A DNA stretch of 64,000 bases from Anaerolineales bacterium (GTDB lineage Bacteria; Chloroflexota; Anaerolineae; Anaerolineales; RBG-16-64-43): assembly GCA_050012135.1 (NCBI GenBank), contig JBEKHT010000008.1:3773-67772 (forward strand), given 5' to 3'. The first letter of the stretch is position 1. Each line of letters opens with the position of its first letter. Below the pieces are notes generated by a model, which was not told where the DNA came from, ran no database searches, and saw only the letters and a program-made list of their open reading frames with translations. The position numbers were made by a program, and so were the translations under genes. Positions 298-7,847 of the stretch are shown piece by piece.

Positions 298-1725
298 ATG
301 TGGAATGAGTACTACAGTGCCAGCGAAGTGGGCGAGGTGCTCGAGATTCTCGCGACTCGGGCGGAGCGGGCTCGAATTGTCGCCGGTGCCACGGACCTGC
401 TTCTGGAGATCGAGCGAGGCGTCCGCTCCGGCATCGAAGCCCTGGTTGATATTTCCCGGATCAAGGGTCTCCGTGAGATCCACCAGGACCGCCATGGCTG
501 GATTCACCTCGGTCCCCTGGTCACGCACAATGACTGTGTGGCCTCTCCGTTGGTTCGCCAGAAGGCCTTTCCCCTGGCGCGGGCTTGCTGGGAGGTGGGG
601 GCGGCCCAGATCCGCAACCGGGGGACCGTTGTCGGAAACCTGATCACGGCCTCGCCGGCGAACGATGCAATCCCTCCTTTGATGGCCTTGGGCGCGGAGG
701 TCAAACTCCTTTCCCAGGGCGGCGAGCGGATTGTCCCACTGGAGAGTTTCTATCAGGGGGTCCGACGGACCGTCATGGATCCCTCCGAATTCCTGAGCGA
801 GGTGGCCTTTCCCGCGCTGACCGCAACCCAGAGAGGTGGCTTCTCCAAGCACGCGCTTCGAGCGGCCCAGGCCGTCTCCGTGGTGAGTGTAGCCGCGGTG
901 CTTGATCTTGATCCCGGAGGCCGGGTCGGCGGCGCGGCCATCACCCTCGGGGCAGTCGCCCCAACGGTCATCCATGCCCGAGAGGCCGAGGAGGTGCTCT
1001 TGGGGCGCCAGCTCGATCCCTCCACTGTGGCGGAGGCGGCCCGCCGAGCCGCGGCTGAGGCCCGCCCCATCTCAGACGTCCGAGCCGGTGCAGAGTACCG
1101 CCGCCACATGGTCCGGATTGGCCTGGAGTGGCTGCTTCAGCAGATTGCCCGTGGGCAGGAGCGGGCCGGTTTTCCCGAAGCCGCCCCTCTGTTGTGGGGA
1201 TCATCCCACCCCATGGCGGGGAGCCTGCCAGCCACCGTGAGCCATCGGGAAGGGGATCTCATCGCCACGCGCGTAAACGGGATCGACTACCGGGTCCAAG
1301 GGGGCATGGAAAAGACCCTGCTCCGTTTGCTGCGTGAAGATCTCGGGCTGACCGGAACGAAGGAAGGGTGCGCCGAGGGGGAGTGCGGTGCCTGCACGGT
1401 GTTTCTCGACGGGGTGGCGGTCATGGCCTGCATGATCCCGGCGGCCAGGGCCCACGGGGCCGAGGTGGTCACGGTCGAGGGTCTATCGCGAGGGGAAGAC
1501 CTGCACCCCGTTCAAAGAGCCTTTGTCGAAAAGGGTGGGGTCCAATGCGGCTACTGCACCCCGGGCTTCGTGATGTCCACAGTCAAGTTGCTTGAGGAGA
1601 TTCCCCATCCGGATCGGGAGCAGGCGGCTTGGGCCCTGGCGGGGAATCTCTGCCGATGCACGGGCTACTACAAGATACTGGATTCCGTTGAGCGGGCGGC
1701 CGAGTTGGCCGGAGGCAAGGAATGA
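298..1725 (+). CDS. Xanthine dehydrogenase-family FAD-binding subunit fused C-terminally to a [2Fe-2S] subunit (CoxM/XdhB-like plus CoxS/XdhC-like)
   Basis: The N-terminus MWNEYYSASEVGEVLEILA...IVAGATDLL is typical of molybdopterin-dehydrogenase FAD-binding subunits. The C-terminus has both ferredoxin motifs, CAEGECGACTV...C and QCGYCTPGF...CRCTGY. ATG at 298 follows GGCGGAG; the ORF track starts earlier, at 256. The stop overlaps the next start (ATGA at 1722-1725). Confidence 0.9.
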   Translation: MWNEYYSASEVGEVLEILATRAERARIVAGATDLLLEIERGVRSGIEALVDISRIKGLREIHQDRHGWIHLGPLVTHNDCVASPLVRQKAFPLARACWEVGAAQIRNRGTVVGNLITASPANDAIPPLMALGAEVKLLSQGGERIVPLESFYQGVRRTVMDPSEFLSEVAFPALTATQRGGFSKHALRAAQAVSVVSVAAVLDLDPGGRVGGAAITLGAVAPTVIHAREAEEVLLGRQLDPSTVAEAARRAAAEARPISDVRAGAEYRRHMVRIGLEWLLQQIARGQERAGFPEAAPLLWGSSHPMAGSLPATVSHREGDLIATRVNGIDYRVQGGMEKTLLRLLREDLGLTGTKEGCAEGECGACTVFLDGVAVMACMIPAARAHGAEVVTVEGLSRGEDLHPVQRAFVEKGGVQCGYCTPGFVMSTVKLLEEIPHPDREQAAWALAGNLCRCTGYYKILDSVERAAELAGGKE

Positions 1726-2081
1726 CTGGGACCTATCACATTCACCTTCCGGAAGAGCGGACTCGTCGGGAGCCGCCCAATCCCATCTGGATGGGGATCG
1801 GGTGCATCCTCGTGGTGGGGCTGCCGGCGATCGGATTCCTTGTGGCGGAATGGTTCTTGCAGGCCAACCTGCTGTACCGGTGGGTCTATTTGCCCCCGTT
1901 GGTTGCTTGGCCGCCGATCGCGCCCTATCTCGTCTTCAAAGTCGTTTTCGCCGTGATCGTAATGCTTTTTGGGCTGGCCCTTTTCTCCGCCTTGTATTCG
2001 CTGATCGCACCGCTGAGGCCGGGCAAATACGATGCGCCACCCCTCACCAAGCGGCCGCGAAGGGTCCGTCCTTGGAGATAG
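1722..2081 (+). CDS. Small predicted 2-TM membrane protein, unknown family (paralog 1)
   Basis: 119 aa with two hydrophobic helices flanked by Arg/Lys-rich tails. ATGA overlap with the upstream FAD/FeS gene. Coding-like codon pattern. Shares a gapless conserved block with the next ORF (WVxLPPxxAWPPxAPxL...ALFxxLYxLxxPxRPGxxDA). Confidence 0.65.
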   Translation: MTGTYHIHLPEERTRREPPNPIWMGIGCILVVGLPAIGFLVAEWFLQANLLYRWVYLPPLVAWPPIAPYLVFKVVFAVIVMLFGLALFSALYSLIAPLRPGKYDAPPLTKRPRRVRPWR

Positions 2082-2216
2082 GACAACTCAACCAGAAGAG
2101 GCGGGAGAGAGGTGTTGCGCCTTTCAATCCGTTGCGAGGTCTTGTAAGAGGCCGGCCTCCGCGGCAGGACCTGAGGACCCGTTGACTAAAGAACGCAGGG
2201 AGGACCAAGAATAGCC

Positions 2217-2579
2217 ATGAGATCACCCGGTCGATACCAGATGCCTTCGAAGGAGTCTGAGAAGAAAACCCAGGAATCCAGGGACCTGTGGGGGGGAGTA
2301 TTCGCGCTGCTCTTCGGCATCGCCCTCGCGGTAGGGGGGTACATCGGTGCCGACCTGATGATTGGGGCGAACAAGGTTCAGAACTGGGTGACCCTTCCGC
2401 CCGAGCTGGCTTGGCCGCCAACCGCGCCCTTCTTGGCCCTCAAACTCGCGGTGGGGTTGGTGGCGATGCTAATTGGCGGAGCACTTTTCACCGTCCTGTA
2501 TGGCTTGGCCTACCCGGTGAGGCCGGGCGCACTTGACGCCGGTCCTACGCGCCTGCGCATGCCCAAGGAGCGAAGGTAG
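2217..2579 (+). CDS. Small predicted 2-TM membrane protein, unknown family (paralog 2)
   Basis: 120 aa with the same architecture and conserved block as 1722-2081. GGGAGGA lies upstream of the ATG. The stop is 3 nt before the Mo-subunit start at 2583. Confidence 0.65.
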   Translation: MRSPGRYQMPSKESEKKTQESRDLWGGVFALLFGIALAVGGYIGADLMIGANKVQNWVTLPPELAWPPTAPFLALKLAVGLVAMLIGGALFTVLYGLAYPVRPGALDAGPTRLRMPKERR

Positions 2580-2582
2580 GCG

Positions 2583-4811
2583 ATGTCAGCCGGGGTGGTG
2601 GGCGCATCGATTCCCCGGGTGGACGCCGTCGCGAAGGTGAAAGGCGCGGCGCCTTACCCCGGCGATTTCAATCTGCCCAATCAGGCCTTCATGAAGGTCT
2701 TATTTGCGCGGCGAGCCCACGCCTTGATCCGCGCCGTGGATACACGCCAAGCCGAAGCCCAACCCGGGGTTCTGGCGGTGCTGACAGCCAAAGATGTTCC
2801 CATCAACGAGTGCGGTCTGGTCATGCCCGACCAGCCGGTTCTCTGCGGCCCTGGATCCGGCAAGGTGGGTGCCGAGCGTGTCCGCTTCGTGGGGGACAAG
2901 GTCGCGCTGGTGGTCGCGGAAAGTGAGGCCATTGCGGCGCGCGCCCTGGCGTTGATTCGGGTGGACTGCGAAGACTTGCCGGTCGTGGCCGATGCCCGGG
3001 AGGCGATGGGCCCATCCAGTCCACTGCTTTTCCCGGAGAAGGGCACCAATGTCTTCTGCCATTATCGAATCCGCAAAGGCGATGCGGAGGGCGATCTCGC
3101 CCGGGCGGAGATCGTCATTCAAGGCGAATACCATACCCCCATGCAGGAGCATGCCTTTCTGCAGCCCGAGGCCGGGGTCGCATACGTGGATGAAGAGGGC
3201 AGGCTGACCATCGTCGTCGCCGGGCAATGGACCCACGAGGATCAAGAGCAGGTCGCTCATGCTCTGGGACTGCCGAAGGAGCGGGTAAGAGTCATTTACC
3301 CGGCGATCGGTGGAGCCTTTGGGGGGCGAGAAGACATGTCCGTCCAGATCCTTCTGGCGGTTGCAGTCTATCGCCTTCAGCAGGGTGGTCTCGCCCGTCC
3401 CGTGAAGATCGTCTGGTCAAGGGAAGAGTCAATCATTGGCCACCACAAGCGCCACATTTTCCACTTCCGGACTCGCTGGGGGGCCACCCGGGAAGGGAAG
3501 CTGGTCGCGGCCGAGGTAGAGATCATTCAGGATGGGGGTGCCTACGCCTGCACCTCCACCAAGGTACTCGGTAATGCCACCTTGTTGTGCACCGGCCCTT
3601 ACGAGATCCCAAGCGTCAAGGTGGATGCCTTCGCGGTCTACACGAACAACATCCCGGGGGGGGCCTTCCGGGGATTTGGAGGCCCGCAGGGACTGTTCGT
3701 CGCTGAGACGCAGATGAACAAGCTGGCGGAGAGATTGGGTTTGGATCCCTTCGAACTCCGCGGGCGGAACCTAATCCGCGAGGGTGGGCTCCTTTCGGTT
3801 GGAACGCCCCTTCCCAAAGGGGTCAGTATGGACCGCGTGGCCCAGGCCTGTGCCGAACGCGCGGGTTGGAAGAAGACTGGGTCCGGGTGGTTTCGGGGCC
3901 CAACCGCGCAGCCCTCGTCCGCTCCCGGCCGGCATTTGCGCTATGGCCGGGGTTTCGCCTGCGGATTCAAGAATGTAGGGTTCTCGTTTGGGGCGCCCGA
4001 GCGTTCGTCGGCTACGGTGGAACTACGCGGCGGGACTCAAATTGAAGAAGCGGTCGTGCATCAGGCCGGAGCGGAGGTGGGCCAGGGCGCCCACACGGTC
4101 ATGGCTCAAATGGCGGCAGAGGCCCTTGGCCTGCCCGTGGGCAAGATACGCATGATTGTTTCCGACACAGCCCGGACCGAGGATGCGGGGTCTTCTTCGG
4201 CTTCGCGGATGACTTTCATGTCGGGGAATGCGATTCGCGGAGCGGCGCAAGCGGCTCTGGAACGGTGGAAGGCCGAGGACCGCCCCGCGCTGGGGACCTA
4301 TCTGTACCGGCCACCCCGGACCACGCCTTACGATCCGGAAACCGGAAGATCGGAACCGAACTTCGCCTACGGATACGTCGCGGAGGCAGTGGACTTGGAA
4401 GTGGATTTGGACACGGGCCAAATCAGGATCCTGAAGGTGATCTGCGCCGACGACGTGGGTCACGCCGTCAACCCGCTGATGGTCGAAGGCCAGATCGAAG
4501 GAGCCATTGTTCAGGCTCAGGGGTACGTCCTGCTCGAGAATTTCGTGACGCGGGACGGCCAAGTCCTGACCCCTCACCTCTCCACCTACCTGATTCCAAC
4601 GGCCGTGGATGTGCCTCAAAAGGTGGAAAGCATCGTCCTCGAATATCCAGATCCCCTGGGACCTTGGGGCGCCCGGGGAATGGGAGAGATGCCTTACCTT
4701 CCTTTTGCCGGCGCGGTGATCGCCGCGGTGCACGACGCGACCGGAGTCTGGTTCGATGACTTCCCACTCACTCCCGAGCGGGTGTTGCGGGGTCTTGAAA
4801 GGCTGGGCTAA
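2583..4811 (+). CDS. Xanthine dehydrogenase/aldehyde oxidase-family molybdopterin-binding large subunit
   Basis: 742 aa. The N-terminal a/b-hammerhead-type start is IPRVDAVAKVKGAAPYPGD. It has the GGAFGGRED (GGxFGG) motif and a C-terminal GARGMGEMP motif carrying the catalytic-type Glu. No Tat or signal peptide. Confidence 0.92.
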   Translation: MSAGVVGASIPRVDAVAKVKGAAPYPGDFNLPNQAFMKVLFARRAHALIRAVDTRQAEAQPGVLAVLTAKDVPINECGLVMPDQPVLCGPGSGKVGAERVRFVGDKVALVVAESEAIAARALALIRVDCEDLPVVADAREAMGPSSPLLFPEKGTNVFCHYRIRKGDAEGDLARAEIVIQGEYHTPMQEHAFLQPEAGVAYVDEEGRLTIVVAGQWTHEDQEQVAHALGLPKERVRVIYPAIGGAFGGREDMSVQILLAVAVYRLQQGGLARPVKIVWSREESIIGHHKRHIFHFRTRWGATREGKLVAAEVEIIQDGGAYACTSTKVLGNATLLCTGPYEIPSVKVDAFAVYTNNIPGGAFRGFGGPQGLFVAETQMNKLAERLGLDPFELRGRNLIREGGLLSVGTPLPKGVSMDRVAQACAERAGWKKTGSGWFRGPTAQPSSAPGRHLRYGRGFACGFKNVGFSFGAPERSSATVELRGGTQIEEAVVHQAGAEVGQGAHTVMAQMAAEALGLPVGKIRMIVSDTARTEDAGSSSASRMTFMSGNAIRGAAQAALERWKAEDRPALGTYLYRPPRTTPYDPETGRSEPNFAYGYVAEAVDLEVDLDTGQIRILKVICADDVGHAVNPLMVEGQIEGAIVQAQGYVLLENFVTRDGQVLTPHLSTYLIPTAVDVPQKVESIVLEYPDPLGPWGARGMGEMPYLPFAGAVIAAVHDATGVWFDDFPLTPERVLRGLERLG

Positions 4812-4955: not shown

Positions 4956-5810
4956 GTGGATGATATCCATCGCTCTCACAGCCTTGGCCCCATGGGCCGC
5001 TTTCCTGTCCTGGTAAGAGGAGGCGGGGACTTGGGCACGGGCGCCGCTGCGCGGCTGTGGCATGCCGGGTTCCCGGTAGCGGTGAGCGAAGTGCCCGAGC
5101 CGCTTGCTGTCCGGTTGGGAGTTGCCCTGGCGGCGGCCGTGTGGGAGGGGAAAGTGCAGATCGAGGATTTGCGGGCCCGGATCGTGTTTTCCGCCCAAGG
5201 ACTCCGGGAAGCCTGGGATCAGGGAGAGGTTCCTGTGGCCGTAGACGCGTCCGCCGGGTTGGCAAAGGAAATCGAATTCCTTGCTGTCATTGATGCTCGC
5301 ATGACAAAGCGTGGCGGGGACGGGCCGGTCCCGCCTCATCCACTGGTGATTGGGCTGGGGCCGGGTTTTGCGGCGGGTTGGGACTGTCATGCGGTCGTTG
5401 AGACCCAGCGCGGACACGATCTGGGGCGTGTCTATTGGTCTGGAGGAGCCCAGGGGGACACGGGCCTTCCCGATTCCGTCGAGGGTCATGGCTCCGACCG
5501 AGTCCTGCGCGCCCCTGTCGAGGGACGCATGCGGGGCGTGAAGCGGATTGGCGACTGGGTTGACGAGGGGGAAGTAATCGCGCACGTTGAGGATCGGGAC
5601 GTGCGCGCTCCCTTTCCGGGGGTTCTGCGCGGCCTGCTCCATGATGGCGTGCGGGTGCCCCAGGGGACGAAAATCGGCGACCTGGACTCGCGGAGCATCC
5701 GTGAGCACTGCTTCAGCATCTCGGACAAAGCACGGGCCGTGGGCGGAGGGGTTCTCGAAGCCCTACTGGCCTCTCCTCAGTTCGCCGAACTCATCCACAC
5801 TCCCACCTAG
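4956..5810 (+). CDS. yqeB: YqeB-family selenium-dependent molybdenum hydroxylase system protein (short form)
   Basis: VLVRGGGDLGTGAAARLWHAGFPVAVSE is a Rossmann-like N-terminus, matching my recollection of the TIGR03309-type family. It lies immediately downstream of the Mo hydroxylase and upstream of yqeC. The start is either GTG 4956 (GAGGG upstream) or ATG 4992. Confidence 0.72.
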   Translation: MDDIHRSHSLGPMGRFPVLVRGGGDLGTGAAARLWHAGFPVAVSEVPEPLAVRLGVALAAAVWEGKVQIEDLRARIVFSAQGLREAWDQGEVPVAVDASAGLAKEIEFLAVIDARMTKRGGDGPVPPHPLVIGLGPGFAAGWDCHAVVETQRGHDLGRVYWSGGAQGDTGLPDSVEGHGSDRVLRAPVEGRMRGVKRIGDWVDEGEVIAHVEDRDVRAPFPGVLRGLLHDGVRVPQGTKIGDLDSRSIREHCFSISDKARAVGGGVLEALLASPQFAELIHTPT

Positions 5811-5856
5811 CTTTTCCGAACCCTCGTCCACCTCCAGGAATTCGAGGAATAGGGCC

Positions 5857-7194
5857 TTGAAGCTGAGTCGAGCCTTGCGCATTGAACCAGGAAATGTGAT
5901 CGCGCTGGTCGGTTCGGGAGGCAAGACCACGACGATGATGAAGTTGGCCGAGGAGACATCGACGGTCGCGCCGGTCCTCCTCACCACAACCACCCATCTG
6001 GCCCAGCGCGAAGCGGAACGTGTGACAAACCGCCTGGTCGCGGCTCAAGGGGATTGGGTGGGAGAGACAGGGAATCGCCTGAGGCAGGGTGCTCCTCTGC
6101 TCCTCACCGGGCCGCTCGATCAAGAGCAAGGGAAGATGGGAGGCCTTTCGCGCAAGCAGTGGGCAAAACTGATGGCCCGCATCGGGGGCCACTATCCAAT
6201 CACGATCGTCGAAGCGGATGGGGCGCGAGGGCGACCTCTGAAGGCGCCGCTCGGGCATGAACCGGAGATTCCTGCGGGAACCTCGCTGGTCGTCCTCTTG
6301 ATTGGGATGGATGGCCTCGGGCAACCGGTCGGCGACTCCAGCGTGCACAGACCGGCTCGGTTTGCCGAACTGGCGGCCGCCGGACCGGAGGCTACTATCA
6401 CCCCGGAACTCATAGGACGAGCGCTGCTGCATCGCGAAGGATACGCGGCGAAGGTCCCGCCCGGCGCCCGATTGGTGGTTTTTCTGAATCAGGCTGAGGA
6501 CCCTTCGCGCCGTGAAGCGGCCCAGGACCTGGCCCAAAGGATTCTCCAATCCCCAGCAGTTGCGGAGGTCCTCATCGGTTCAGCGATTTCATCCGATCCG
6601 GTCCAGGTGGTCAAGGGTCGGACTGCAGGCGTCGTGCTTGCTGCCGGCGGCTCCCGGCGCATGGGCGAGCCGAAGCTGCTCAAGGAATTTCGAGGGCGGC
6701 CGCTGGTGGCCCAGGCGGTTGAGCTCGCCTCGCGGACAACGGAGGAAGTGCTCGTCATCCTAGGAGCCAATCAGTCATCGATCCGCTTGGCTCTGGCAGG
6801 ACGGGATGTCCGCTTTGTTGAGAACCCCCATTGGGATCAAGGACAAAGCACCTCCGTGCGGGCGGCGGTCCATGCCCTCGGAGAAAGGTTTCACAGCGCC
6901 CTCTTCCTTCTCGGCGATCAGCCCCTCATCCCGGATCAACTCGTGCACATGCTCGTCGCACGTCATGCCCAAACCCTGTCCCCCCTGGTCGGCCCTCGGG
7001 TTGCGGGCCGGCAAGCCAACCCCGTCCTCTTTGACCAGGCGACTTGGCCGGCCCTTCTCCAGGTTCGAGGCGACGTCGGTGGGCGAGGGCTGCTCGACCG
7101 GTATCCGGTCGAGTGGATCGAGTGGCCCGACCCGAATGCTTTCCTTGACCTGGACACAGCGGAGGACTATGGGAAGCTGCTGGAACTGGAATGA
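5857..7194 (+). CDS. Fusion protein: YqeC-family selenium cofactor accessory domain plus MocA/MobA-like molybdenum cofactor nucleotidyltransferase domain
   Basis: The N-terminal half has KLSRALRIEPGNVIALVGSGGKTTTMMKLAEE (YqeC-like P-loop). The C-terminal half has AGVVLAAGGSRRMG.PKLL...LLGDQPLI (MobA-like NTP-transferase). The track ORF starts at 5587 but overlaps yqeB out of frame. TTG at 5857, preceded by GAGGAA, fits the usual YqeC N-terminus. Confidence 0.75.
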   Translation: MKLSRALRIEPGNVIALVGSGGKTTTMMKLAEETSTVAPVLLTTTTHLAQREAERVTNRLVAAQGDWVGETGNRLRQGAPLLLTGPLDQEQGKMGGLSRKQWAKLMARIGGHYPITIVEADGARGRPLKAPLGHEPEIPAGTSLVVLLIGMDGLGQPVGDSSVHRPARFAELAAAGPEATITPELIGRALLHREGYAAKVPPGARLVVFLNQAEDPSRREAAQDLAQRILQSPAVAEVLIGSAISSDPVQVVKGRTAGVVLAAGGSRRMGEPKLLKEFRGRPLVAQAVELASRTTEEVLVILGANQSSIRLALAGRDVRFVENPHWDQGQSTSVRAAVHALGERFHSALFLLGDQPLIPDQLVHMLVARHAQTLSPLVGPRVAGRQANPVLFDQATWPALLQVRGDVGGRGLLDRYPVEWIEWPDPNAFLDLDTAEDYGKLLELE

Positions 7195-7847
7195 GCGTCG
7201 CAAATATGCCCGCGGAAGGGCAGGGGCAGAGGGATCAAACGCTGAGCGTGGCAGCGGTCGTTCTGGCCGCCGGCAGATCGAACCGCATGGGGGGCCCCAA
7301 GCTTCTCTTGCCCTGGGGGCAGTCCACCGTGATTGCCGAGGTCGCAAAGGTCCTCATCGAGGCCCAGATTGATCCGGTCGTTGTGGTGACGGGCGCCCGC
7401 CGCGAGCCGGTGCTGGACGCCTTGAAAGGTCTTGCGGTGTTGCCTGCGCACAACGATCGCTACGAGAGGTTCGGGATGACGTAATCGGCTCAGGTCGGCC
7501 TGCAAATTCTCCCCGGCTCATCTTCGGCCACCCTGATTGTGCTGGGCGATCAGCCTCAGCTGGAGCCAGGGATTGTGTGCCGCTTGGTCGGGGAATGGGC
7601 CGGATCTCAATGCCCAGTTGCGGTTCCGGTCTTTGAGGGACGGCGAGGACATCCCCTCCAACTGGATCGCCGGTTGTGGCCGGAGCTTCTGGCCATGGAT
7701 CCCGCCAGGTCGATTCGCGATCTGGTTCATCGGCATCTGGATGAGCTCTGCGAAGTGGGGGTAGAGAGCTCGTCGGTTCTTGCCGATCTTGATACACCCG
7801 CCCAATACCATCAGGCTCTTCGCCAGCACAACCAGCAAGTCCGCTAG
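7191..7847 (+). pseudogene. Second MocA/MobA-like nucleotidyltransferase interrupted by an in-frame TAA (7482-7484)
   Basis: ORFs 7191-7484 and 7539-7847 are in the same frame. Read through, the sequence is ...NDRYERFGMT*SAQVGLQILPGSSSATLIVLGDQPQL..., colinear with the MocA domain of the upstream gene (NPHWDQGQSTSVRAAVHAL...LLGDQPLI). The stop falls where a conserved Ser is expected. ATGA overlap with the upstream gene. Confidence 0.7.

Follow-up and report, generated by a model that had tools for sequence, protein, structure and literature searches.

The operon and its two mini-protein genes

The stretch of DNA analyzed here (the window) comprises 64,000 nucleotides from an Anaerolineales bacterium, and all genes described lie on its forward (+) strand. 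The gene at positions 298 to 1725 encodes a 475-aa fusion of the FAD and [2Fe-2S] subunits of a molybdenum hydroxylase, identified by Pfam matches to FAD_binding_5 (1e-43), CO_deh_flav_C (7e-23), Fer2_2 (2e-30) and Fer2 (4e-05). This FAD/FeS subunit is 100% identical to the database protein P0270, 'FAD binding domain-containing protein [Anaerolineales bacterium]', and the matches listed in a search with it are Anaerolineae relatives of 59–64% identity. The molybdopterin-binding large subunit (Mo subunit, 742 aa, 2583 to 4811) matches the Pfam domains Ald_Xan_dh_C, MoCoBD_1 and MoCoBD_2 at E ≤ 1e-20, and its closest solved relative is the alpha subunit of 4-hydroxybenzoyl-CoA reductase (1rm6, 4e-87). 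By these matches, the host enzyme is a member of the xanthine dehydrogenase (XDH)/molybdenum hydroxylase family. Assignment as xanthine dehydrogenase proper (PucD/XdhA equivalogs) was rejected, the best NCBIfam match, pucD, reaching 551 bits where 784 are required and the others also remaining below their cut-offs. A preliminary description of this locus had noted that the large subunit is devoid of an export signal, and indeed neither a twin-arginine motif nor another export signal was present in the FAD/FeS or the Mo subunit.

Downstream of the structural genes lie genes of the maturation type. A YqeB-type maturation protein, a marker of the selenium-dependent molybdenum cofactor, is encoded at 4956 to 5810 (TIGR03309, 305.7 bits with a cut-off of 220), followed by a fusion of YqeC with the cytidylyltransferase MocA at 5857 to 7194 (TIGR03172, 166.7 bits with a cut-off of 73; Pfam YqeC and NTP_transf_3). 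The start of the latter is uncertain; the TTG at 5857 yields a protein of 445 aa, equal to the lengths of its orthologs. A second MocA-like gene (7191 to 7847) is interrupted by an in-frame TAA at 7482–7484 and matches NTP_transf_3 on both halves, while its ortholog in a close relative of the window (L002) is intact (218 aa) and has CAA at the position of the stop codon. In the operons of relatives, a gene for XdhC is located upstream.

Two small genes, in the following termed A and B, are placed between the genes for the FAD/FeS and the Mo subunit. Gene A (1722 to 2081) encodes the more canonical mini-protein of 119 aa. Its start codon and the stop codon TGA of the FAD/FeS gene overlap within the sequence ATGA, and the Shine-Dalgarno sequence GGAGG precedes this start at a distance of 6 nt, so that positions 1711 to 1725 read as a translational-coupling junction. 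Gene B (2217 to 2579) encodes the more divergent copy of 120 aa and has the sequence GGGAGGA (2197–2203) 14 nt upstream of its start; 3 nt separate its TAG from the start codon ATG of the Mo subunit gene. Coordinates, ATGA coupling and the 3-nt gap are thus as initially described. The Shine-Dalgarno sequence of B belongs to a 135-nt spacer (2082 to 2216) that is conserved with respect to L002 but not to L006; the spacers of L006 and L099 are of similar length (137 and 141 nt, respectively). No Rfam match was obtained for this spacer, the z-score of its fold was −0.44, and a signal scan for an internal promoter or terminator stayed at chance level.

A and B had been regarded as paralogous proteins with two transmembrane (TM) segments on the basis of a hand count of identical residues. 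BLASTP surpassed this count, with 41 identical residues out of 110 (37%, E=7e-26) over nearly the full length, and each protein has two hydrophobic segments, confirming the relationship. When compared with their orthologs at dS≈1, A and B yielded dN/dS values of 0.105 and 0.193, the same test giving 0.126 for the FAD/FeS subunit, 0.072 for the Mo subunit and 0.236 for YqeB. The ranges obtained were 0.07–0.19 for the two genes at dS≈1, 0.07–0.22 for A and 0.17–0.42 for B. By this sequence measure A and B are real genes under purifying selection comparable to that on the enzyme genes, and because of this selection both reading frames are presumably translated. Further copies of the mini-protein gene were not found within the 64-kb window.

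A family of membrane hairpins encoded next to the FAD/FeS gene

A profile built from A and B retrieved 161 representatives (50% identity clustering, E ≤ 1e-3), nearly all of them 110–140 aa in length, and a second search with a profile of the family retrieved 282 proteins. Among these, proteins of the window type (P0003, P0004 and P0006) were found at ~1e-31 to 1e-35; P0001, P0002, P0005, P0007 and P0011 are orthologs of B. Scanning 185,579 species genomes for the family motif gave 272 confirmed loci, a number that refers only to members carrying HPIWRGIG as it was obtained with a narrower alignment. The profile search proposed for A and B thus reveals homologs in many genomes and a family that spans hundreds of loci. 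All 80 loci that were retrieved for inspection stem from Chloroflexota/Anaerolineae, as does every named source, and tblastn with A and B detects the mini-protein gene in most of the 80.

No family match for the mini-proteins was obtained in Pfam (A, B and 37 relatives) or NCBIfam, and in particular no existing Pfam or DUF family with an unrelated function turned up; such a family would have spoken against a new component. Sub-threshold matches to Yip1, DctQ, MnhB and OAD_gamma did not recur across members and were dismissed as noise caused by hydrophobic composition. A sequence-profile search of the PDB with the family gave noise only (best E=0.32), and Foldseek returned nothing meaningful for the hairpin model of A (best E=4.2, TM 0.23). 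A and B consequently belong to an unnamed family of ~120-aa 2-TM proteins that has no match in Pfam, NCBIfam or the PDB. Its members are currently annotated as 'hypothetical protein' or, wrongly, as 'cytochrome b subunit'. The name 'quinol-cytochrome oxidoreductase complex cytochrome b subunit' assigned automatically by JGI was rejected, since there is no family match and there are no conserved heme ligands; cytochrome b families were absent from the Pfam results for 39 members and from the NCBIfam results for four members named in this way by JGI and two others.

Hydrophobic segments comprise residues ~20–47 and 60–98 in A and ~23–51 and 68–101 in B, and exactly two such segments are present in 241 of 250 family proteins. 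The AlphaFold2 model of A is a hairpin with helices at residues 21–52 and 70–95 (mean pLDDT 84). In the family the net charge amounts to +2.7 for the N-terminal tail, +0.2 for the loop and +4.4 for the C-terminal tail. Segment number, charge bias and model fit the prediction that A, B and the family as a whole are two-helix hairpins with N-in/C-in orientation and both tails in the cytoplasm. This is the orientation previously proposed from the basic nature of the tails, and the charges are consistent with it. Basic tails are also expected from the positive-inside rule alone.

The family is characterized by the signature HP[IV]WRG[IV]G[CF] before TM1, an N that ends TM1, a loop containing W..[IL]P, and, after TM2, the motif GPxDAPP (G/P-x-D-A/V-P-P) followed by a poly-K/R tail. 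Nearly invariant positions are W23, G25 and G27 on the cytoplasmic N-terminal side, P97 and D104 on the cytoplasmic C-terminal side, and N49 and P58 on the outer side, so that the best-conserved positions reside mostly in the two predicted cytoplasmic juxtamembrane segments, HPIWRGIG and GPxDAPP with its basic tail. A has kept most of the signatures (NPIWMGIGC, N49, W54..LPP, RPGKYDAPP and the tail KRPRRVRPWR). In B, which has a Gly-rich TM1, the N-terminal motif has degenerated to RDLWGGVFA, while the N..W..LPP loop, RPGALDAGP and the basic tail are retained. The loop motif LPPxxAWPPxAP, to which attention had been drawn at first, holds for the sub-lineage of A and B but not as a signature of the family. 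The only common His of the family is that of the cytoplasmic HPIW motif, and it is absent from A and B. The family alignment shows no conserved His within the TM helices, and the mini-proteins contain no conserved heme or metal ligands.

In 78 of the 80 genome loci, the gene immediately upstream of the mini-protein gene encodes the FAD+[2Fe-2S] fusion. The two genes overlap by stop and start codon in 55 of these 78 loci and are separated by no more than 30 nt in 73. The same order is found in L001–L015, in the cultured Thermanaerothrix daxensis (L096) and in L099, and the junction is kept at mini-protein identities as low as 24–33%. The Mo-subunit gene adjoins the mini-protein gene in only seven of the 80 loci, is located 1.8–4.2 kb away in 24 and is absent within at least 4.5 kb in another 24. 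As the position of the Mo-subunit gene varies and the adjacency of the FAD/FeS gene hardly does, it is the latter junction that selection preserves. The original statement that the mini-protein genes lie between subunit genes therefore applies to the window and some lineages but not in general, the conserved partner being the FAD/[2Fe-2S] gene and not the Mo gene. These loci also contain another XDH-type set of genes, for a separate FAD subunit of 250–275 aa and an FeS-Mo fusion of ~1000 aa, and this set is not accompanied by a mini-protein gene. Genes for F420 biosynthesis and F420-type (luciferase-like) oxidoreductases are frequent neighbors. Homologs next to XDH genes, the occurrence of which had been named as a decisive check, were thus found in 78 of the 80 loci and in all other contexts examined with two exceptions: in L030 the mini-protein gene resides beside genes for a heme oxygenase and an MBL-fold protein, and in L100 (P0010) between genes for an FMN_red flavoprotein and a lycopene-cyclase-family protein. 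Within a single bacterial class, such linkage could partly reflect shared ancestry.

Most lineages have one mini-protein gene per operon. The tandem arrangement initially reported is real in the window but is no rule for the family: the pair is kept in the lineage of the window, with B in second position as in L001–L009, and in one other (L099). A and B form separate orthologous lines (A-A 50%, B-B 45%, A-B 31–37% identity), and from these sequence relationships the pair is an old, retained duplication. In addition, fused double versions occur (P0056, 219 aa; P0073, 200 aa; P0091, 208 aa), such that the family displays one unit in three forms, as a single copy, as a retained tandem pair and as a fused pair. 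AlphaFold2 predicts four TM helices for P0056 (pLDDT 81) with a pTM of only 0.51, which does not establish how the hairpins pack. The fused 4-TM versions together with the retained pair suggest a dimeric unit.

A proposed membrane anchor and the competing explanations

XDH-family molybdenum hydroxylases are textbook soluble enzymes. Since the genes of an unnamed family of membrane proteins are in nearly all cases coupled in translation to the FAD/FeS gene, a membrane-tethered form of this enzyme type is probable here. The suggestion that the mini-proteins constitute an undescribed accessory component is supported, as a candidate, by the homologs found next to the FAD/FeS gene in many genomes, and nothing relevant on a membrane subunit of such enzymes in Chloroflexi came up when we searched the literature. 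Either a membrane tether or a docking module for electron transfer, as initially suggested, would fit all findings. We favor, with moderate confidence, the idea of a membrane anchor: the mini-proteins would dock the FAD/FeS subunit to the inner side of the membrane, where it could exchange electrons with the quinone pool. A and B would then be integral membrane subunits holding the cytoplasmic enzyme through its FAD/[2Fe-2S] subunit, with the cytoplasmic segments of the mini-proteins as the putative binding sites. The hairpins may dimerize, as a homodimer in most lineages, as an A/B heterodimer in the window and as a pseudo-dimer in the fused versions, and a hairpin dimer would match the dimer-of-heterotrimers architecture of XDH-family enzymes. 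FAD is the electron exit site of these enzymes. Placed at the membrane, it could exchange electrons with menaquinone, whereby substrate hydroxylation would be coupled to the respiratory chain. As conserved heme and metal ligands are missing, the mini-proteins would not be redox carriers; they would serve as a dock or contribute to a quinone site.

It is also conceivable that the mini-proteins are a tether without a role in electron transfer, which would localize the enzyme in a metabolon with an importer or exporter or would sequester it, while electrons pass from FAD to soluble NAD(P)+, ferredoxin or F420. Topology, coupling to the FAD/FeS gene and conserved cytoplasmic motifs also fit such a tether, and both the F420-related genes commonly nearby and an EamA-type transporter gene, which in some loci (L022) is among the genes separating mini-protein and Mo genes, are in line with it. 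However, the mini-protein gene is coupled to the FAD/FeS gene, whose product is the side on which electrons leave, instead of to the Mo gene, whose product binds the substrate; moreover, no transporter gene is consistently linked, and we regard this explanation as unlikely. Slightly less probable, in our estimate, is an assembly, maturation or regulatory factor that acts on the FAD/FeS subunit in cofactor insertion or stability and is not a stoichiometric part of the mature enzyme. Small membrane proteins often serve as assembly factors, and maturation genes abound in the operon (YqeB, YqeC-MocA and MocA, with XdhC upstream in relatives). On the other hand, a stop/start overlap with the gene of a structural subunit usually indicates stoichiometric co-production, two diverged copies that are kept and two copies that are fused fit a structural oligomer better, and the known maturation factors of the XDH family, XdhC and CoxD/E/F, are soluble.

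An independent membrane function, for instance as a small channel or stress protein, with the gene position inherited as Anaerolineae synteny, would agree with the two members in non-XDH contexts and with the restriction of the family, so far, to one class, which makes many of the loci non-independent. We consider it improbable, given that the junction survives at 24–33% identity while Mo, maturation and flanking genes rearrange, that the coding overlap is kept in 55 of 78 loci and that the window contains no extra copies elsewhere. Finally, DNA with a GC content as high as here (~60–65%) yields many long chance ORFs, of which overlapping ORFs in the window are examples, but the notion that A and B are spurious ORFs in intergenic DNA is already refuted by dN/dS values far below 1, hundreds of homologs in which motifs and length are conserved, Shine-Dalgarno sites at both genes and a confident AlphaFold2 hairpin.

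Going beyond the anchor that we favor, we tentatively raise a more specific and somewhat doubtful possibility, namely that the mini-proteins represent a novel type of membrane subunit by which a cytoplasmic XDH-family hydroxylase of Anaerolineae becomes a genuine respiratory quinone-reducing dehydrogenase, the hairpin dimer itself contributing to the quinone-binding site where it meets the FAD. The L100 member beside the FMN_red gene hints that the family might be a general flavoprotein dock. The hand-over of electrons from bacterial XDH-family enzymes to the respiratory chain has been worked out only recently, for CO dehydrogenase via CoxG, and a conserved, unannotated 2-TM family linked to the FAD/FeS gene points to a membrane route that differs from CoxG. 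If a quinone site were indeed formed, this would be a second wiring of XDH-family enzymes into the membrane, with an evolutionary origin independent of CoxG. Sediments, peat, digesters and wastewater harbor Anaerolineae in abundance, and few members of this class have been brought into culture. If an anchoring role were confirmed, these operons would have to be annotated differently, models of purine or heterocycle oxidation in these organisms would gain an energy-conserving step, and a compact natural module would be at hand by which flavoenzymes could be tethered to membranes.

Comparison with known systems

The host operon resembles those of selenium-dependent molybdenum hydroxylases (SDMH) in that it carries the markers yqeB and yqeC above curated cut-offs. 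Among the closest solved relatives of the host enzyme is nicotinate dehydrogenase from Eubacterium barkeri (3hrd), which is a selenium-dependent enzyme. As many mini-protein lineages lack yqeB and yqeC next to the operon (L012, L014), the mini-protein is not tied to the selenium trait. A membrane subunit of SDMH is not mentioned in the titles and abstracts of the pertinent papers found (Haft and Self, 2008, PMC2276186; a C. difficile study, PMC11448449).

SdhC and SdhD of succinate dehydrogenase possess heme ligands and a defined quinone site. RdhB of reductive dehalogenases is presented as a small membrane anchor that holds the catalytic subunit (PMC6797604). Like the mini-proteins, RdhB and SdhC/SdhD are short, hydrophobic, poor in or free of cofactors and encoded beside the catalytic subunit; they belong, however, to other protein families and have other partner enzymes. 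Moreover, RdhB presents its enzyme outside the membrane, whereas conserved tails and enzyme are predicted to be cytoplasmic here, and the heme ligands of SdhC/D contrast with the mini-protein family, in which no TM-helix His is conserved.

The aldehyde dehydrogenase of acetic acid bacteria (8gy3) likewise is an XDH-family enzyme at the membrane that delivers electrons to the respiratory chain, and the FeS domain of the host enzyme is related to its small FeS subunit (8gy3_B, 6.6e-31). That enzyme is periplasmic and attached via a multi-heme cytochrome c subunit, and it is not known to have a 2-TM mini-protein.

The closest analogue for a possible mode of action of the mini-proteins is CoxG of [MoCu]-CO dehydrogenase, which is likewise encoded with an XDH-family enzyme as an accessory protein and resides in the cytoplasmic membrane. 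CoxG consists of an SRPBCC domain and a C-terminal TM helix by which it is membrane-tethered; its lipid-binding SRPBCC domain extracts menaquinone, and a positively charged interface is proposed to let CoxG dock close to the FAD in CoxM, deliver menaquinone there and thereby link the enzyme to the menaquinone pool (Kropp et al., 2025, PMC12202499). In the same work, menadione was reduced by purified Mo-CODH. An assignment of the mini-proteins to CoxG/SRPBCC (PF06240-type), a class marked by a Bet v 1-like domain that has a hydrophobic cavity and by a C-terminal TM helix, was rejected, as Pfam gave no such match for A, B and 37 relatives and the model is a bare helical hairpin. While CoxG combines a soluble SRPBCC domain with a single TM helix, a mini-protein of ~120 aa consists of a 2-TM hairpin alone and has no soluble domain. 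As the two are related neither in sequence nor in fold, any similarity between CoxG and the mini-proteins would be convergent.

Operon structure and authenticity of the two small genes

The window opens with an XDH-family molybdenum hydroxylase operon on the + strand. The gene for a 475-aa fusion subunit carrying FAD and [2Fe-2S] (FAD/FeS, 298-1725) is followed by ORF A (1722-2081, 119 aa), ORF B (2217-2579, 120 aa), the gene for the 742-aa molybdopterin subunit (Mo, 2583-4811), yqeB (4956-5810), a yqeC-mocA fusion (about 5857-7194) and a second mocA-like gene (7191-7847), all on the + strand. The FAD/FeS stop codon overlaps the start of A as ATGA, and GGAGG is located 6 nt before A. GGGAGGA is found 14 nt upstream of B, the end of which is separated by 3 nt from the ATG of the Mo subunit gene. 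The spacer between A and B had no Rfam match, its predicted fold was not unusual and promoter or terminator signals did not exceed chance.

The second MocA-like gene, which encodes a cytidylyltransferase, is broken by an in-frame TAA at 7482-7484, beyond which the frame runs on unchanged to 7847. The ortholog at the related locus L002 has CAA (Gln) at this site and encodes an intact 218-aa protein. We regard the TAA as a nonsense mutation, incipient pseudogene or sequencing error.

The preliminary description of A and B proved accurate with respect to coordinates, overlap and the two hydrophobic segments and basic tails present in both proteins. Their paralogy was also borne out, the alignment now extending over 110 residues (37% identity, E=7e-26) compared with the 55-residue stretch counted originally. 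Selection was assessed against the syntenic relative L006, which has a synonymous divergence of about 1 from the window. A and B had dN/dS values of 0.105 and 0.193, respectively, those of the FAD/FeS, Mo and YqeB genes being 0.126, 0.072 and 0.236. In an independent comparison of L002 with L006, the values were 0.071 (A) and 0.166 (B). AlphaFold2, run on A with the family alignment, returned a helical hairpin with helices at residues 21-52 and 70-95 and a mean pLDDT of 84. We conclude that A and B are genuine genes, and we attach practically no probability to their being spurious ORFs.

A new family of two-helix membrane proteins

When A and B were used as queries in a word-indexed search, no more than eight close relatives emerged; all come from Anaerolineales MAGs, and they separate into A-type and B-type orthologs. 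With an exhaustive profile search the count rose to 161 cluster representatives at E<=1e-3, of which 29 reached E<=1e-10; almost all of the 161 measure 110-140 aa. Their alignment reveals a basic N-terminal tail terminating in HP[IV]WRG[IV]G[CF], a first transmembrane helix that has Pro at its center and Asn at its end, a W..[IL]P-containing loop whose length varies, a second transmembrane helix and a tail with GPxDAPP followed by a Lys/Arg run. Exactly two hydrophobic segments were present in 241 of 250 members. Over these 250 the N-tail, loop and C-tail have net charges of +2.7, +0.2 and +4.4, from which an N-in/C-in topology is predicted for the family. Most of the nearly invariant residues reside in the two cytoplasmic juxtamembrane segments.

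With a 39-member profile 282 proteins were retrieved. None carried a precomputed Pfam domain, and most had either no name or that of 'hypothetical protein'. Foldseek comparison of the model with the PDB gave no match, and the family has no description in Pfam, NCBIfam, the PDB or the searchable literature. The mini-proteins, as we term its members, thus constitute a new protein family. To several of them (P0052, P0236, P0238, P0247, P0250, P0256 and P0257) JGI has automatically assigned the name 'quinol-cytochrome oxidoreductase complex cytochrome b subunit'; P0205 appears as 'amino acid transporter'. An identity as cytochrome b subunits was rejected: Pfam and NCBIfam cytochrome b models and PDB chains were unmatched, and no conserved His occurs inside the helices of the family. 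Both names appear to be annotation errors because they lack family or motif support, and both could spread.

Operons normally contain a single mini gene. The tandem pair noted in the preliminary description is real, but it elaborates a single-copy system in particular lineages and is not the general arrangement; the window contains no further copy besides A and B. A separate lineage (L099) repeats both pair and layout, with an ATGA overlap, an A-like gene, a 141-nt spacer, a B-like gene and the following gene 2 nt on. Identity amounts to 50% between the A proteins and 45% between the B proteins, as against 31-37% between A and B inside one genome, so the duplication must be old, with both copies maintained since as separate lines. 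Of the two, A is closer to the canonical form; B lacks the HPIWRGIG motif and evolves faster. Three natural fusions, P0056 (L087, 4956-5618), P0073 and P0091, combine a canonical with a degenerate copy in single proteins of 200-220 aa with four transmembrane segments. Their second halves lack the HPIWRGIG motif, parallel to B in the window, and AlphaFold2 predicted four transmembrane helices for P0056 (pLDDT 81, pTM 0.51). Taken together, the tandem pairs and the fusions indicate duplication or fusion in more than one lineage, always joining a canonical to a degenerate copy. This recurrent pairing suggests that the hairpins work as dimers.

Linkage to the FAD/FeS subunit gene

The layout of the window is common to all close relatives (L001-L009). 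Distant members with 24-33% identity to A were checked one by one. At L010 (in a 5.4-Mb genome), L012/13 and L014/15, one mini gene lies between the genes for FAD/FeS (463-478 aa) and Mo (737-740 aa), and at L011 it follows the FAD/FeS gene, the next gene not encoding a Mo subunit. The cultured Thermanaerothrix daxensis (L096) has the order FAD/FeS (474 aa), a 125-aa mini-protein with stop/start overlap and Mo (740 aa), followed by yqeB-like, yqeC-mocA and mocA genes.

When 185,579 species, each represented by one genome, were scanned by motif, 272 loci were confirmed; the 80 retrieved from these all stem from Chloroflexota/Anaerolineae MAGs. As far as sampled, the family is confined to Anaerolineae. 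In a tblastn census, the FAD/FeS fusion gene was directly upstream of the mini gene at 78 of the 80 loci, with stop/start overlap in 55 of the 78 and a gap of <=30 nt in 73. Of the two exceptions, L043 begins at the edge of a contig, and L030 (5001-5390) is a true stand-alone copy next to heme oxygenase and MBL-fold genes. A further exception, P0010 (L100, 862-1224), is preceded at 125 nt by an FMN_red flavoprotein gene and followed by a gene of the lycopene-cyclase family (FAD-dependent type). It is possible that other flavoproteins can also serve as partners of the mini-protein; alternatively, L030 and L100 may represent rearrangements.

The Mo gene is a less faithful neighbor. It adjoins the mini gene at seven of the 80 loci, is found 1.8-4.2 kb downstream at 24 and is missing from at least 4.5 kb downstream at another 24, the remaining 25 contigs being too short to judge. 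Hence, of the earlier placement of A and B between both subunit genes, the association with FAD/FeS holds generally while that with Mo does not. Moreover, a second XDH-type gene set present at the same loci, comprising a separate FAD subunit of 250-275 aa and an FeS-Mo fusion of about 1000 aa, is without a mini gene. We therefore consider the FAD/[2Fe-2S] fusion subunit to be the conserved partner.

In many Anaerolineales (L022, L023, L024, L027 and others) an insert of ~3 kb separates the mini and Mo genes, and the genes in between vary by lineage. At L022 (5416-8553) an unknown 136-aa ORF, an EamA-type transporter and DUF6909 all share the strand of the operon, and could belong to the same pathway; at L040 the interval holds an aminotransferase gene on the opposite strand.

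The enzyme and the possible role of the mini-proteins

The best NCBIfam matches of the enzyme (pucD and others) were all below cut-off, and its closest solved relatives are 4-hydroxybenzoyl-CoA reductase, Desulfovibrio aldehyde oxidoreductase, nicotinate dehydrogenase and XDH. YqeB and YqeC, markers of selenium-dependent molybdenum hydroxylases, exceed curated cut-offs in the operon (4956-7194); the pair is also found at L010, L063, L070-L078 and L096. L012 and L014 have the same enzyme and mini-protein but only MocA genes, so the selenium trait seems variable within the enzyme clade. Upstream of the operon, L001-L009, L012-L014 and L096 carry the second XDH-type enzyme, XdhC and F420-related genes (CofC, CofD, F420-0:glutamyl ligase family, F420_oxidored family and a luciferase-like oxidoreductase of the F420-dependent type), and the window begins just downstream of the corresponding region. 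These genes may hint at the pathway or electron carrier. An amidohydrolase gene is also among the neighbors.

The mini genes are real, conserved and currently unannotated accessory genes of an XDH-family enzyme, and the proposal of an undescribed accessory component is supported as a candidate by the FAD/FeS linkage and the absence of the family from Pfam, NCBIfam and PDB. In XDH-family enzymes, electrons pass from Mo via a pair of [2Fe-2S] clusters to FAD, the site of reaction with the external acceptor. The acceptor of Mo-CO dehydrogenase is menaquinone, brought by the membrane-tethered CoxG, a lysine-rich surface of which docks beside the FAD subunit (PMC12202499). On the most economical view, the mini-proteins, as integral membrane hairpins, may well dock the FAD/FeS subunit on the inner face of the membrane, where its FAD would exchange electrons with the quinone pool. 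This docking proposal is drawn from genomic context: the membrane hairpins, their conserved cytoplasm-facing parts, the linkage to the FAD/FeS gene and an enzyme in whose subunits no export signal was found.

The same features could be read in other ways. A membrane tether without a role in electron transfer would share the hairpins and the linkage with the docking proposal, and we rate it as improbable. A function in assembly or regulation appears slightly less probable again. Lower still we place a function unrelated to the enzyme, the gene position then being inherited synteny. A small part of the probability is assigned to none of these readings.

The system lends itself to experiments in a cultured organism and is relevant to the way in which molybdenum hydroxylases connect to membranes. 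If docking by the mini-proteins holds, they would function in the manner of CoxG or of small anchors such as RdhB. The families are nevertheless separate, as the mini-proteins lack an SRPBCC domain, match no family and differ in topology. A small membrane anchor of a peripheral redox enzyme is of a known kind, but the protein family that carries it here is new.
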